NCBI GenBank assembly: GCA_047611865.1
Contig: JBLFWS010000113.1
Coordinates: 1 to 10,759, forward strand
Length of the DNA stretch: 10,759 nucleotides
Reading direction: 5' to 3'
Source of the DNA: Chlamydiales bacterium
Lineage (GTDB): Bacteria > Chlamydiota > Chlamydiia > Chlamydiales > JBDQID01
The position numbers and the translations under genes were made by a program. Positions within the stretch are counted from its first letter, which is position 1, and the number at the start of each line of letters is the position of its first letter. The notes below the pieces were generated by a model. That model ran no database searches and was not told the origin of the DNA. It saw only the letters and a program-made list of their open reading frames with translations. Shown here in pieces: positions 6,962 to 10,759 of the stretch.

Positions 6962-8785
6962 TTACTTAAGAATGTTTGTCTTTTTCAAAAAATAGATGAT
7001 AGCATCGTCGGTGAAGCTATATTTGTCGTCTAATACAAAATTGGTCATAAATTCAGATGATCTTGCTTTTTTGAGTTCCAAGTTGAGGTCCCCTTCTTTA
7101 GATGAAGGGTTGAGGTAAAGATCGTCCTCCTTTACTAGAATTTCGCAGAGCTTTCGCCAAGCCTTTGGGTCTGTTTTGTTTTCCTCTAGAAAGCTGGAAG
7201 CTTTATTCTTTACTGAGTCGAAGCGATCCTTTTGAAAATCGTCATCAACAAAATCTTGAAACCAATCCATAAAAGTTTCTCTCTCAAAAAGGTTAAGCGA
7301 GGAAAGCTCATCTTTAAATTTTTGGATAACCTGGTGAGGGCCAAAGCGACTTAAAAAGAGATTCGTCCAAGCCGTATCACCATCTTCGTTAAATCTCTGG
7401 GCGAAAGGATCTTCAAAATCTATTTCAGTTGGGACCGGGAGTTTTAGTGTTCTAGCTAGTAGCTTACTATAGTCATTGTAGGCGTGGATAGGTTCAGGGT
7501 TATCACTTATTTGCTGGTGTCGCGAGGCATCCATTCTACTAGCAAGTCTTTCTACAATGCCTATTTTCATATTCAGCAGGCTAGTTTGTACTTTTTCCGG
7601 AAGACTCTCAATCTTTATGGAGCCAGTCATTGAGTGGTAGGTATTGTGAGCCTGCCCAGTATAACGAGTTCCACAGTTTCCACCAGCTTCTGCCAAATCA
7701 AGAATAGCCGAAATTTTTCGGTCTTCATCCATACCTCTTGATTGGGAAATAATATGAAGAACAGTTTTTTTTAAGTTTTTATAAAATTGGCTCAGTTGTG
7801 CAGGTTTGTCCATTGAGGGTGTACCCACAAAGGGTTCCTCTGTCTTAATTCTACGAACAAATGTAACAAGTGAGTTTCTGAGGTCTTCGGGGGTCGTAAG
7901 GTAACCATCGTCTGTAAGTTCTTTTGGATTCCTGTAATGAGGAGCCTTTGGATCACTAAAATTTATCTTGTCAAAAAGTTCTGTAAGTTCGTCAAGCTCA
8001 ATAAAAGGAGGTGCTGGGGGGATGGCGATTTCTACTTCTATCGTGGCCTTCATCTGATCAAAGTCGATAGAATATTCGGCGTCACGGCAAAACTCTGAAA
8101 GTTTTGCAGGGAAATTAGTTTTTAGGTCGTCGAGGTAGGACTGAAAATCGGCCTCAGAAGAACTTGCCTTCAAACTCCTGTATAGACTTGGATCTGCACC
8201 AAGAATAGGAATAAGAAGAGGGTTGAAGCTTTTGTTTTTCACCATTGTTTCATTGAGGAGATCTTTGGGGGTATCAGAGAGATATTGCAATAGATTGTTG
8301 TCATAGACTCCGATAAGAACTTGCATTTTGTCGAACCCGGCGAAAAAATGAAATGCACCACTTTCGTCAGAATCGTCAAAAGAGTATTCAAAGGGAGTAA
8401 GTTGAAAATGAGTTTCGTTTAAAGGGTCAGCTCCGGCCTGAAGTAAAAGTAATGTCATATCTCGGTTTCCGTTGTCCATCAGGAAATGCAGAGGAGTCTT
8501 CCCTAGTGAATCACTAAAATTAACATCGGCATCTTTTGCGATAAGCTTTCGGATAACGCTGTTAGAATCAATAGCGCAGGCAATGTGGAGAGGTGTTTGT
8601 CCTATTGACCCAGCGACATTCACTTCGGCTCCTGCGTGGATTAAGCTGAGGGCTATTTCCTCATCACCAAAGCCGCAGGCGTGATGCAGGGGAGTTCTTC
8701 CTATTGCATCAGGGATATCTAAGGGGGCGTTTAGCTCTAATAACTTTTTTGCGCTGGCCGCCGATTCAATTCTGAAGTGCGACAC
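6962..8785 (-). CDS. Ankyrin-repeat protein (probably 5'-truncated) with putative NEL-like E3 ligase C-terminal domain
   Basis: Three clear ankyrin repeats (GRTPLHHAC, GQTPLHIAC, GKTPLHFLM) preceded by a half repeat (AKKLLELNA). The first 9 codons come from the 26-bp repeat. AGGNCGTRY motif at Cys371. Confidence 0.8.
   Translation of the reverse strand: MSHFRIESAASAKKLLELNAPLDIPDAIGRTPLHHACGFGDEEIALSLIHAGAEVNVAGSIGQTPLHIACAIDSNSVIRKLIAKDADVNFSDSLGKTPLHFLMDNGNRDMTLLLLQAGADPLNETHFQLTPFEYSFDDSDESGAFHFFAGFDKMQVLIGVYDNNLLQYLSDTPKDLLNETMVKNKSFNPLLIPILGADPSLYRSLKASSSEADFQSYLDDLKTNFPAKLSEFCRDAEYSIDFDQMKATIEVEIAIPPAPPFIELDELTELFDKINFSDPKAPHYRNPKELTDDGYLTTPEDLRNSLVTFVRRIKTEEPFVGTPSMDKPAQLSQFYKNLKKTVLHIISQSRGMDEDRKISAILDLAEAGGNCGTRYTGQAHNTYHSMTGSIKIESLPEKVQTSLLNMKIGIVERLASRMDASRHQQISDNPEPIHAYNDYSKLLARTLKLPVPTEIDFEDPFAQRFNEDGDTAWTNLFLSRFGPHQVIQKFKDELSSLNLFERETFMDWFQDFVDDDFQKDRFDSVKNKASSFLEENKTDPKAWRKLCEILVKEDDLYLNPSSKEGDLNLELKKARSSEFMTNFVLDDKYSFTDDAIIYFLKKTNILK
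8759..8784 (+). mobile_element. Solo IS30-family-type terminal repeat, copy 1
   Basis: CGCCGATTCAATTCTGAAGTGCGACA, 26 bp, identical to 10644-10669. Length and the GATTCAAT...GC.ACA pattern match IS30-family IRs as I recall them. Confidence 0.7.
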
Positions 8786-8961
8786 TTATATACATAACTT
8801 ACTGATTATAAGCGCAAAAGTGCTCTTAAGACATGTTTTCGTACCAATGGTTGCCGAACCCCCTTGAATACGTTTTTGGCCAATATTACACGAATCACGG
8901 CCCAACCTCATCTAAATTTACATATTTTTAATAAATTATTTAACAACTGCCAATAATCCGA

Positions 8962-8970
8962 TGTTATAAT
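8962..8970 (+). promoter_or_regulatory. Extended -10 promoter element for the kinase gene
   Basis: TGTTATAAT in an AT-rich stretch, 37 bp before ATG 9008. AAGGA RBS at 8997-9001. No good -35. Confidence 0.5.
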
Positions 8971-9007
8971 AGTTTTTAATTTAAACGAAATAACAAAAGG
9001 AAATACA

Positions 9008-10471
9008 ATGCCCTATTATTCACTTCAACCAATGGCAGCTCCTCATGACTTCCTACACATACAACAAGCTCAAGCCTCTGCAGCTCCCATAACTTACACC
9101 CAAGCATGCCCAGCTGTATCAAGGCTCACTTATCAGCCCACACATTATATGTCTCCTTCAGTAAGGGCAGCCCCACCAGCATTCACAGCTTCACCAATGG
9201 CCATGCAACCAAGAATTTCACCAACAAGAGTTTCTTACCCATATTTTGCCCAAACTAGACTGCCCACCCCACAGCCGGTAGTGAATCCTCATGTTGCTAA
9301 AATATCTGAAATTCAAAACTCCATTTGCGCTATCCAAAATTCCCCAGAAGGAATATCTGGTACAAATCTCCAAAGAATTAACGAATTGAGTGCTAAAATC
9401 GCCGACCACCAGTCTAAATGTTATTCAGCACGAGAATATGGCCAAGGTGATGTATATAGACAAATTCAGGAAAGCTTTCAATATGTTGTAAACTCTCTAG
9501 CGACACTTATTCAGCTACCACCCAGGGCCACAACTTATCAGGCAGCTCCAATATATGTACAAGCAGTAGATCCAGAACCCTCCTGTATGTATAGAACTTT
9601 CTCAGAAGCTTCTACTTCAGTAAGGTCGCCAACAGAAACCCCACCTCAATCACCTGCTGTTAACCCAACAAGAACTCAATATGCTTCGGCAAGCACAGCA
9701 AATACTCCAATGGATAAAGCTATTGCTGTACTTCAGAATCGTGGAATAGCCATTCAGAGGCAAGAGTGGCTAACAGGATTCAATGGAGGACAAAATGACG
9801 GAATCGCGAAAATTCATACTAACCAAGGTGTTTTCTTTCTAAAGATCCTCAAACAGGATTCCCGTACAGCGGAAACGATCACAAGGCTAAAAACTTTGAA
9901 AAGTCGTTTACCAGAGATTCTTAAGCACGGTAGCAATAGACAGGGACTTCCCCAAATTGTTCATCCCATCGCTGCCGACGACAATTGGGTACTTTTACCT
10001 GGAGCGAAAGGTCTCTGTGTAAACGAACTCATCAACGATCGTAATATTTCCGTTGAGGAGCAACAAGAAATCGTGCGCCAAGTAAGTCAGTCTCTCGAAA
10101 AACTTGATGACTTAGGATGGAGGCATGGTGATGCCAACACAATGAATATTTTCTATGATCGAAACTCCCGATCTGTTCACCTTATTGACAATGATTGTCT
10201 ATACGACCAGCGTCAAGGTAACGGATTTCGAATTCCAAAAAAAGATCCTGATGGATTTAGAGAAAGCCTCAAAATAGTGGGAAAGGGCCATCTAATCCAA
10301 CAAGCTCCTGCCCTTCCCACTTGTGTAGGTGAAATCTATGAAAGAGTTGTTCCAGCCCACAACCCTTATCTTATTAATAGATCAGCTTCAAACTATGCAG
10401 TATCGGAAAGGGCTTTAAAATCCCTTGCTCTTTATGGGCGTGCAGGTTCAAGTCCTGTTCCGATCAACTAA
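9008..10471 (+). CDS. Kinase-like (APH/RIO/Kdo-type fold) protein with low-complexity N-terminus; putative secreted effector
   Basis: First ~235 aa are rich in P/A/S/T/Q/Y. Then a Gly-rich loop GFNGGQNDG, VFFLK, catalytic loop HGDANTMNI and metal-binding LIDND. Confidence 0.8.
   Translation: MPYYSLQPMAAPHDFLHIQQAQASAAPITYTQACPAVSRLTYQPTHYMSPSVRAAPPAFTASPMAMQPRISPTRVSYPYFAQTRLPTPQPVVNPHVAKISEIQNSICAIQNSPEGISGTNLQRINELSAKIADHQSKCYSAREYGQGDVYRQIQESFQYVVNSLATLIQLPPRATTYQAAPIYVQAVDPEPSCMYRTFSEASTSVRSPTETPPQSPAVNPTRTQYASASTANTPMDKAIAVLQNRGIAIQRQEWLTGFNGGQNDGIAKIHTNQGVFFLKILKQDSRTAETITRLKTLKSRLPEILKHGSNRQGLPQIVHPIAADDNWVLLPGAKGLCVNELINDRNISVEEQQEIVRQVSQSLEKLDDLGWRHGDANTMNIFYDRNSRSVHLIDNDCLYDQRQGNGFRIPKKDPDGFRESLKIVGKGHLIQQAPALPTCVGEIYERVVPAHNPYLINRSASNYAVSERALKSLALYGRAGSSPVPIN
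10401..10466 (+). pseudogene. tRNA-Leu(TAA) fragment lacking a D-arm; att-site-like
   Basis: Anticodon arm AAGGG-C-TTTAAAA-T-CCCTT (TAA at 10416-10418). Long variable arm GCTC-TTTAT-GGGC. T arm GCAGG-TTCAAGT-CCTGT. Acceptor 3' strand TCCGATC plus discriminator A10466. No D-arm upstream. Confidence 0.85.
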
Positions 10472-10479
10472 GATACAAT

Positions 10480-10511
10480 GGCTTAAGTCTTTCCAGACTT
10501 AAGCCTTTTTT
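10480..10511 (+). terminator. Rho-independent terminator
   Basis: 11-bp perfect stem GGCTTAAGTCT / AGACTTAAGCC, loop TTCC, then T6. Confidence 0.85.
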
Positions 10512-10526
10512 CGTTAAGGAGGAGTT

Positions 10527-10546
10527 TGTCCAACTCCTGTCCAACT
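10527..10546 (+). repeat. Tandem 9-bp direct repeat TGTCCAACT (possible integrase arm-type sites)
   Basis: TGTCCAACT at 10527-10535 and 10538-10546, 11-bp period, ~110 bp from the anticodon loop. Confidence 0.45.
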
Positions 10547-10643
10547 TTTTCTGTGCTTGCATGATTTTTTTATGCCTTTGAGTTTTTTAATGATGATGGC
10601 GAGCAGAAGTAAAATTTTTAAAGATTAACTATTTTTTTACTTT

Positions 10644-10669
10644 CGCCGATTCAATTCTGAAGTGCGACA
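10644..10669 (+). mobile_element. Solo IS30-family-type terminal repeat, copy 2
   Basis: 26/26 identical to 8759-8784 in the same orientation. Extends to 29/30 with the following (C/T)TTA. Confidence 0.7.
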
Positions 10670-10670
10670 T

Positions 10671-10759
10671 TTAGGCAGCCTCACTAAGGCGGCTGTAATA
10701 GCAAGTAGAGGTTAAAAGAGGGCTACCGTTCATATCGCAGCTTTTGGGATCGGCTCCTC
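10671..10759 (-). CDS. 3' end of an ankyrin-repeat ORF entering from the right edge (probable N-terminal part of the split ankyrin gene)
   Basis: Frame from 10757 reads GADPKSCDMNGSPLLTSTCYYSRLSEAA*. This is the ankyrin GAD.....D..G pattern plus helix 1, stopping at a TAA inside the extended repeat. Confidence 0.55.
   Translation of the reverse strand, partial: GADPKSCDMNGSPLLTSTCYYSRLSEAA

Follow-up and report, generated by a model that had tools for sequence, protein, structure and literature searches.

Passenger genes bracketed by same-orientation insertion sequences (ISs) are known from the translocatable units and pseudo-compound transposons of IS26, which carry whole ISs with their transposase and use a targeted conservative reaction particular to the IS6 family. 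tRNA-gene islands and their integrase-less derivatives (cis-mobilizable, or CIME-type, elements) form a second group of described systems. Closest to the locus considered here is Tn6330 (ISApl1-mcr-1-pap2-ISApl1), in which direct copies of ISApl1, a member of the IS30 family, surround about 2.6 kb of chromosomal cargo (PMC5821093). Tn6330 tends to lose one or both ISApl1 copies after insertion (Snesrud et al. 2018, mBio, PMC5821093). As set out in the sections of that paper that deal with these losses, each deletion starts at a short repeat abutting the left inverted repeat (IRL) and stops at another one within or close to the right inverted repeat (IRR), with joints of 1-4 bp, whereas in ten Tn6330 variants the terminal 42 or 90 bp, including an intact IRR, are retained, with joints of 7 and 10 bp; the losses are put down there to abortive copy-out transposition, and the cargo is left immobile (PMC5821093). 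Here, we analyze a stretch of 10,759 nt from an uncultured environmental chlamydia (Chlamydiales bacterium, GenBank assembly GCA_047611865.1, the whole of contig JBLFWS010000113.1, forward strand; hereafter, the window), in which two short direct repeats enclose a unit of about 1.9 kb with a kinase-like gene, and we lean, modestly, toward reading this unit as a decayed and now immobile composite transposon of the IS30 family.

The repeats at 8759-8784 and 10644-10669 are identical at 26 of 26 nt and lie in direct orientation, with a period of 1,885 nt from start to start; extended to 30 nt they match at 29 positions, the difference being C at 8785 and T at 10670. Chance alone would, by our own estimate, give some 1e-8 exact repeats of 26 nt in a sequence of 10.7 kb. 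When both strands of the entire contig (C113) were searched with up to 4 mismatches, two copies only were found, both on the plus strand and hence no inverted 26-mer, and neither an IRL nor an inverted copy of the repeat occurs in this contig or in C131, the contig that overlaps its end. Between the repeats lie a promoter-like -10 element, an open reading frame (ORF) of 487 amino acids (aa), a tRNA-like fragment, and a strong terminator (Table 1); no transposase is present there, the sole long ORF being that at 9008-10471, and a Pfam scan found no recombinase gene in the unit. The extended -10 element, TGTTATAAT, was read by eye, a promoter scan that requires a -35 hexamer made no call, and a terminator scan returned an 11-bp stem with a T tract at 10480-10505. 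The first-pass annotation of this stretch had described 26-bp direct repeats (29/30 when extended) around a promoter, a kinase-like gene, a tRNA fragment, and a terminator, with neither an inverted partner nor a transposase inside, and the two-strand search together with the ORF and Pfam checks confirms both descriptions; its repeat length of 26-30 nt is right for the first copy and too short for the second, which has 51 nt in common with the IS.

The 26-mer is the IRR of an IS30-family insertion sequence. The genome (G000, 272 contigs) contains 13 exact matches, which represent 12 distinct copies, one being duplicated by the overlap with C131, and in 9 of the 12 a contig end lies 98-151 nt away and the sequence runs on into the same IS body, as is typical of a multicopy element that has collapsed. 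Depth and joints were read from k=31 contigs, which drop rare variants, of three public sequencing runs (X1-X3), which may be the genome's own source and hence not independent of the assembly. In these contigs, the 51-nt piece at 10644-10694 has depths of 1259, 188, and 255, compared with about 61, 9, and 11 for single-copy flanks, which gives some 20 IS copies per genome; with an IS in such high copy number, transposase is abundant in trans. The full body of the high-copy IS is absent from the assembly, and the family was called via diverged sister copies and transposase fragments. The sister copies lie inside contigs; the most complete (C121), which measures about 1,099 bp, and the one on C206 have a transposase gene that reads toward the IRR end. 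The C206 transposase scores 235.7 bits on the NCBIfam IS30 model NF033563 (cut-off, 80), and what remains of the high-copy element's own transposase, an N-terminal and a C-terminal fragment, is clearly homologous to it.

By our own count, the IRR (CGCCGATTCAATTCTGAAGTGCGACA) and the IRL (CGCCCTTTCAACCGTGAAGTGCGACA) are identical at 21 of 26 positions; the genome holds 8 IRL and 12 IRR junctions, and the transposase stop codon abuts the IRR. A T-run (at least 3 T, 5-15 nt outside the IRR) accompanies 11 of the 12 distinct exact copies, including both copies in the window. Two of five sister copies have a 3-bp target duplication, four of the five are internally deleted (642-1063 bp versus ~1099 bp), and one sister copy lies within a perfect 32-nt palindrome. 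Members of the IS30 family encode a DDE transposase between imperfect terminal inverted repeats of some 20-30 bp, duplicate 2-3 bp of their target, and favor AT-rich or palindromic sites. The 26-mer presumably resembles the inverted repeat of IS30 itself, an element for which a target hot-spot consensus is known. The IS body, the IRL and IRR, and the transposase score agree with the earlier proposal that the 26-mer is an IS30-family terminal repeat. The genome-wide search upheld this identity as well, and the refuting possibility raised alongside the cassette proposal, that the 26-mer is a high-copy dispersed repeat whose two copies here are independent, turned out to hold by half: it is a high-copy dispersed repeat, with 12 distinct exact copies in the assembly and about 20 by depth.

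The same inverted repeat was found in 6 of 300 other genomes of the order, which belong to three other families. Truncated solo IRR stubs of the same IS30 clade occur in other families at G033:C9:49553-49578 (38 nt), where the stub lies between both arms of a 10-nt inverted repeat, and at G174:C65:3848-3873 (34 nt). Within the window's own genome, C60 (~9270-9395) carries a remnant of about 120 nt from the IRL side of the high-copy IS, consisting of the IRL and the start of the transposase gene joined to unrelated sequence, and an IRR copy at C247:1-58 runs after 46 nt into its own reverse complement (a snap-back around a hairpin loop) and then reaches the contig end, which may be an assembly artifact or a head-to-head IS junction.

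Both copies in the window are truncated stubs with no IS attached, the left one 26-30 bp long and the right one 51 bp. Stub 1 matches the IS for 26 nt, or for 30 nt when the following CTTA is counted, with no IS sequence past 8788; this CTTA is either nt 27-30 of a variant IS copy or cargo already, and the other exact copies that run on into the IS read TTTA at this place. Stub 2 matches the IS for 51 nt, that is, the inverted repeat plus, on the minus strand, the last seven transposase codons (SRLSEAA) and the stop, and its 25 nt of IS interior form a hairpin. Both outer junctions look like genuine insertions, as each has the T-run signature of the element, and at the inner junctions the IS sequence breaks off, after 26-30 nt in stub 1 and 51 nt in stub 2. 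The bases GC (left) and GC(T) (right) are readable as a 2-bp duplication, yet their removal puts the halves of the interrupted ankyrin gene out of frame. An attempt to place the deletion joint of stub 2 gave GGCGGCT, a 7-nt joint if the flank starts with GCT, and the 2-bp duplication so implied again breaks the ankyrin frame. We also considered, and rejected, a transposon with stub 1 as one end and a cryptic sequence as the other, with no IR-like end at the left edge of the cargo and no inverted copy of the IR in C113 or C131.

The repeats appear, from the coding sequence on either side, to sit inside one ankyrin gene that was cut at a single ankyrin (ANK) repeat with the loss of about 2 residues. 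C131 overlaps the window end by 127 nt, of which 11 belong to the cargo, 51 to stub 2 in its full length, and 65 to the N-terminal part of the gene (ank-N). The ank-N ORF (C131:42-1490, 483 aa; Pfam Ank_2 at 5.7e-42) reads into stub 2, which provides its terminal SRLSEAA and stop (...STCYY-SRLSEAA-stop). On the other side, the listed ORF for the C-terminal part (ank-C; 6962-8785, 607 aa) starts within the first repeat copy, its GTG start and first 9 codons coming from stub 1 (GTG-SHFRIESA-), and then continues with ASAKKLLELNAPLD; it has 3-4 ANK repeats in its N-terminal part (Pfam Ank/Ank_2), followed by an unnamed C-domain of ~470 aa. A paralogue of 1,276 aa on C65 of the same genome has a long ANK region and then the same C-domain. 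In the 33-residue ANK register, ank-N stops at position 12 and ank-C resumes at position 15, and the two halves are in one reading frame across the 51-nt stub.

The gene and its insert lie between two genes that are neighbors in relatives. Of 40 relatives searched, at least 11 have no more than 4 kb (0-4 kb) between the 495-aa gene (1681-3168) and fabI (C131:1604-2560), compared with ~9 kb here, so the ankyrin gene and insert occupy a variable slot between core genes. The comparison with relatives that the first-pass annotation had suggested confirmed the core neighbors and yielded neither an intact IS-cargo-IS copy nor an empty ankyrin site among the genomes compared, of which one, 68% complete, belongs to the same family. 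Exact scans of metagenome contigs with the ank-C junction flank and with the start of the cargo left arm gave 0 matches each, in a collection from which near-identical records may be left out.

The cargo comes from elsewhere. Its tRNA-like fragment, 10410-10466, is the part of tRNA-Leu(UAA) from the anticodon arm to the 3' end and matches intact tRNA-Leu genes at 93% over 59 nt in a relative (G022) and at 95% over 60 nt in a genome of a different family (G132); the match to the genome's own intact tRNA-Leu(UAA) (C45:10-93) is 83% over 52 nt, the main difference being a change, with compensation, in the variable arm. As the fragment lacks the 5' half, ARAGORN reports no tRNA for the window, and Rfam, searched at E<=1 over 8600-10759, returned a single snoRNA match (E=0.95) attributable to chance. 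The synteny upstream of the intact tRNA-Leu(UAA) on C45 is conserved in 7 of the 8 relatives' loci compared; judged from gene order, the host locus between the 495-aa gene and fabI is not the tRNA-Leu locus, and the cargo is foreign there. The left edge of the cargo, CTTATATACA, resembles the trailer 3' of tRNA-Leu copies, which reads CTTTTATATA in the genome's own copy on C45 and TCTTTATATACA in a distal copy in G011. At 1.68 kb (8785-10466), with 176 nt more downstream, the cargo looks like one whole cassette of a tRNA-Leu hot spot that has been displaced.

Such a hot spot is apparent in the relatives. Four of 11 loci examined hold one or two tRNA 3' fragments after the intact tRNA, bracketing 1.5-4.7 kb of cargo. 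The pattern is seen at L036 (G039:C67 ~8050-11930), L019 (G011), L021 (G016), and L023 (G028); the repeated part measures 55-60 nt, starts in the anticodon arm, and, across the order, recurs one to several times downstream of the intact gene. The inserts carry an ankyrin protein, a chloramphenicol-acetyltransferase-family gene, AbiE, HepT/MNT toxin-antitoxin pairs, and a tyrosine-phosphatase-like protein, with no integrase in those examined. The 3'-half pattern occurs in 171 of 300 other genomes of the order, 37 of these 171 having two or more copies by manual count, and in the large arrays of G135 and G162 a tyrosine integrase lies just after a tRNA copy. Taken together, these patterns indicate that integration at tRNA-Leu(UAA) has happened repeatedly in the order, which makes this gene a hot spot; a literature search for such a hot spot in chlamydiae gave nothing specific, which is not proof of absence. 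The window itself has the 3' repeat only, with no intact tRNA, attL, or integrase, and its cargo fits a translocated fragment of a tRNA-integrated island. The att-like site that the first-pass annotation had postulated is therefore present as a tRNA-derived remnant, one that belongs to tRNA-Leu(UAA) integration and not to the IS end. A 301-nt contig present in all three runs at depths of 45.6, 8.85, and 9.35, near those of the genome, contains a second copy of the 76 nt at 8787-8862 (2 mismatches, 1 gap) with different flanks on both sides; it is not in the bin, and the 30-nt loose end beyond this second copy was not found in the binned genome. Possibly, this contig represents the left arm of whichever cassette lies behind the intact tRNA-Leu today.

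The product of the 487-aa ORF has a Pro/Ala-rich segment (residues 1-90), a helical module common with glutamine-deamidase-domain proteins (residues ~50-235; window 9008-9710), and a small RIO/Kdo/Bud32-like kinase domain (residues ~240-470), in which an HGD...N motif (HGDANTMN) and a metal-type IDND are visible. The only Pfam match is to the Kdo/WaaP kinase family, borderline at 22 bits against a cut-off of 21.3, NCBIfam matches to Kdo kinase and Bud32 are far below cut-off, and structure matches to RIO/Kdo kinases in the ESM Atlas have TM (template modeling) scores of 0.53-0.69; an AlphaFold2 single-sequence model was too poor (mean predicted local distance difference test score, 41) and was not used for fold search. 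We regard "kinase-like" as a reasonable but unproven label. A HMMER search against 1.84 billion representatives gave three weak matches besides the protein itself, a word-index homologue search returned itself only, with the same protein reported on a contig of 47.5 kb, and the ORF is thus an orphan. Two of the three weak matches (P0002 and P0003) and a paralogue in the same genome (C88:7755-9089) share the N-terminal module at ~30% identity and end in Gln_deamidase_2; the shared N-terminal module with different ends suggests a modular effector family with swappable catalytic heads. The last ~19 codons of the ORF are read from the tRNA fragment, and tblastn with residues 465-485 hits the tRNA-Leu gene of G132. 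With its own putative promoter and a borrowed tRNA terminator, the kinase-like gene is probably expressed.

The sequence shows what the repeats are, that both are truncated, that the gene is split, and that the cargo stems from a tRNA-Leu site elsewhere, and from this we propose the following path. Two copies of the high-copy IS30-family element would have inserted in the same orientation around a 1.86-kb piece of a tRNA-Leu(UAA) hot spot, capturing one complete cassette (kinase-like gene, tRNA 3' half, and terminator) with 176 nt downstream. The IS-cargo-IS unit would then have transposed, via its outer IRR and outer IRL, into the ankyrin gene in the variable slot between core genes. Each IS copy would subsequently have been lost by imprecise, transposase-initiated excision, the "abortive transposition" described for ISApl1 and Tn6330, in which the deletion starts immediately outside the IRL, ends within the IRR or shortly past it, and leaves only an IRR-side stub. 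The ankyrin gene would end up as two open frames, with stub 2 stopping the N-terminal part and stub 1 giving the C-terminal part its GTG start. It is the composite-transposon stage, the full IS copies, and the way in which these were lost that we infer.

The decay model for Tn6330 predicts two right-end remnants in the same orientation, one on the outer flank and one on the inner side of the cargo, with target halves that still fit. At this locus, both remnants are IRR sided with the whole inverted repeat, the ankyrin halves fit within 2 residues and in one frame, and the cargo derives from another locus, as it brings a tRNA-Leu 3' half and terminator into the interval bounded by the 495-aa gene and fabI. 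Of the direct IS copies expected around the cargo, two direct IRR-side stubs are observed, and neither a target duplication nor an empty site was found. The IRR stubs in G033 (38 nt) and G174 (34 nt) indicate that this outcome recurs.

Several points weigh against a composite transposon. No target-site duplication is demonstrable, so that either some flank bases were lost or no duplication was made. Position 27 of stub 1 is C, compared with T in all the other exact copies that continue into the IS, which requires that the IS was a variant, that the base mutated, or that the stub is just 26 nt long. In the genome as a whole, no more than two IRR stubs are clear, and these lie 1.9 kb apart, which could equally mean one coupled event, and the IRL-side remnant on C60 (~120 nt) shows that IS decay in this genome does not always keep the IRR. 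Neither an intact IS-cargo-IS copy nor an empty ankyrin site was found anywhere searched. Finally, the assembly and the depths both give one copy of the cargo, and copy-out-paste-in transposition should leave a donor; the donor would thus have been lost or would lie in another genome. The heterologous tRNA half and the presence of the same inverted repeat in three other families are compatible with a source in another lineage.

The arrangement is real and fixed, with a cassette depth equal to that of its flanks in the three runs. For the contigs 7500-8788, 8759-10671, and 10665-10759, depths are 61.2, 62.9, and 61.2 in run 1, 8.47, 9.23, and 8.92 in run 2, and 13.4, 10.9, and 10.1 in run 3. 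No circle junction, empty allele, or other joint is listed in the contigs of these runs, which rare forms could escape. Three further runs (X4-X6) contain 5-11% of the words, with 6 of 30 bins at depth 1-3 in X4, and we draw no conclusion from them. With two direct IRRs and no IRL, the transposase would have no usable end pair and could not move the unit, which is most likely a frozen scar rather than an active excisable cassette. The excisable cassette of the first-pass annotation finds no support in the equal depth, in the contigs of the three runs, which show no circle or empty site, or in the ends and genes of the unit, which include no IRL-IRR pair and no recombinase; the search for outward junctions that it had proposed was run on the contigs of the three runs only and listed no joint.

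Could the same structure have arisen with no composite transposition at all? Stepwise recombination, inversions, and deletions among the ~20 IS copies could have brought two of them to their present positions, with unrelated deletions trimming both, which would account for the decay. The genome is indeed full of this IS and of its decayed relatives, four of five sister copies are internally deleted, C60 retains an IRL remnant, and many of the 272 contigs are broken at IS ends. IS-IS recombination, however, joins one flank at a time, and cargo between two fitting gene halves needs an insertion-type event; moreover, both remnants are IRR sided with the whole inverted repeat, as in the ISApl1 decay products described for Tn6330 (PMC5821093). 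We consider the stepwise scenario rather unlikely.

The first-pass annotation had itself proposed that a small circle integrated at a resident solo IS30 end. In this scheme, a 1,885-bp circle, made up of the cargo and one IRR, would have recombined with a solo IRR stub resident in the ankyrin gene, with later loop-out being possible; a template switch during replication between two IRR copies would give the same product. That product is exactly what is observed: the C/T difference at position 27 would mark two parental inner flanks, the genome's only two IRR stubs would adjoin as one coupled event would have it, and the inner end of stub 1, GCGACA|C, resembles the tRNA-Leu 3' end and trailer on C45, GAGCA|C, a microhomology suited to circle-forming excision. 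Even so, the scheme does not dispense with a full IS that entered the ankyrin gene and was later reduced to a stub, and it calls as well for an illegitimate excision and rescue of the circle across 26 bp only, with no known recombinase. IS30 transposases act on an IRL-IRR pair, which is lacking here, and a circle that holds 176 nt downstream of the tRNA terminator is not an integrase product. Each repeat copy, furthermore, has its own genuine insertion junction with the T-run signature, and two direct IRR-side stubs are what the decay of an IS30-family composite leaves in the Tn6330 variants described (PMC5821093). Although it predicts the same final sequence, the circle thus invokes rarer steps for which we see no specific evidence, and we judge it quite improbable.

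A broader scenario would make the integrase-less tRNA-Leu(UAA) cassettes a shared pool of effector, defense, and resistance genes in environmental chlamydiae, from which IS30-family elements shuttle whole cassettes between loci and perhaps lineages and, in its boldest form, would have the IRR stubs still allow rare loop-out. The scenario is entertained because the tRNA half in the window is closer to the tRNA-Leu of another family and because the same inverted repeat occurs in three other families; we hold it as a speculation that is distinctly improbable. As for a chimeric join produced by the repeats, the contig does end 90 nt past the second repeat, where the assembly is broken and overlaps C131 by 127 nt, but the independent k=31 contigs of three runs follow the same path at equal single-copy depth, one of them spanning from repeat to repeat (8759-10671), the stub 1 junction is internal to the contig, and the overlap spans cargo, the whole of stub 2, and ank-N, which makes an assembly artifact highly improbable.

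Table 1. Features of the unit and of its immediate surroundings in the window
Feature	Coordinates	Strand	Description and basis
ank-C	6962..8758	-	Predicted C-terminal part of split ankyrin gene; ORF list, Pfam Ank/Ank_2
T-run in target	8745..8750	+	9-14 nt outside stub 1; insertion-site signature of the IS
Stub 1	8759..8788	+	Complete 26-bp IRR (8759-8784), outer end left, then CTTA
Cargo left arm	8785..9007	+	Begins CTTATATACA; holds TGTTATAAT at 8962-8970; AAGGA 5' of ATG
487-aa putative orphan kinase-like ORF	9008..10471	+	ORF list, profile and structure searches
Displaced tRNA-Leu(UAA) 3' part	10410..10466	+	Anticodon, variable, and T arms, 3' acceptor strand; attR-type remnant
Intrinsic terminator	10480..10511	+	11-bp stem, 4-nt loop, TTTTTT; type found 3' of relatives' tRNA-Leu(UAA)
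T-run in target	10632..10638	+	6-12 nt outside stub 2
Stub 2	10644..10694	+	26-bp IRR and last 25 nt of IS interior; outer end left
ank-N 3' end	10695..10759	-	Predicted N-terminal part of split ankyrin gene; continues on C131

Elsewhere in the window, clusters of the motifs CACAGAGA and TCTCTGTG (4771-4871 and 5753-5962) flank a lipoprotein-like ORF of 281 aa (4877-5722) and include an 18-nt perfect inverted repeat (4846-4863 with 5766-5783) and a 41-nt imperfect palindrome (5764-5887). A 20-nt perfect hairpin (427-446/464-483, within 427-483) has an 80% similar direct copy at 4723-4757, and the region of this copy (4723-4761) is itself paired with 4606-4629; the hairpin and its copy may represent a small dispersed palindromic repeat.

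If the composite-transposon reading is correct, an IS30-family element took an orphan kinase-like gene from a tRNA-Leu hot spot into an ankyrin effector gene, and the loss of both IS copies fixed it there. The "birth and demise" pathway of the mcr-1 transposon would then also shape the effector repertoires of uncultured, IS-rich environmental chlamydiae, and solo IS ends in the same orientation need not signal a new type of mobile cassette. The more useful lead, maybe of wider use, is the tRNA-Leu(UAA) hot spot of small cassettes in this order.

Set against the known systems, the locus shares with IS26 the idea behind the first-pass annotation, namely, a circle with one IS end and cargo that integrates at a resident copy; the repeats here, in contrast, are IS30-family stubs of 26-51 bp and not whole ISs, and we know of no IS26-type targeted reaction for stubs of this kind. 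The likeness to tRNA islands and CIME-type elements lies in the displaced tRNA 3' half in which the cargo ends and in the 55-60-nt repeats that bracket small cargo at tRNA-Leu(UAA) in relatives, whereas the window has no intact tRNA, attL, or integrase and the unit lies far from the tRNA-Leu locus. Relative to Tn6330, as far as its decay is described by Snesrud et al. (PMC5821093), the locus presents the end state only, with neither an intact form, a single-ended form, nor an empty site found; it has no demonstrable 2-bp duplication, both of its stubs keep the entire inverted repeat when most of the mcr-1 structures described keep 20 bp or less, and it combines a candidate kinase-like effector and a tRNA-Leu att remnant with an ankyrin target in an uncultured environmental chlamydia. 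In the remaining respects covered by that description, the two agree: an IS of the IS30 family, two direct copies (presumed from their stubs here), chromosomal cargo of 2-3 kb, short right-end pieces with the whole IRR (42 and 90 bp there, 26-30 and 51 bp here), and an immobile end state (PMC5821093).

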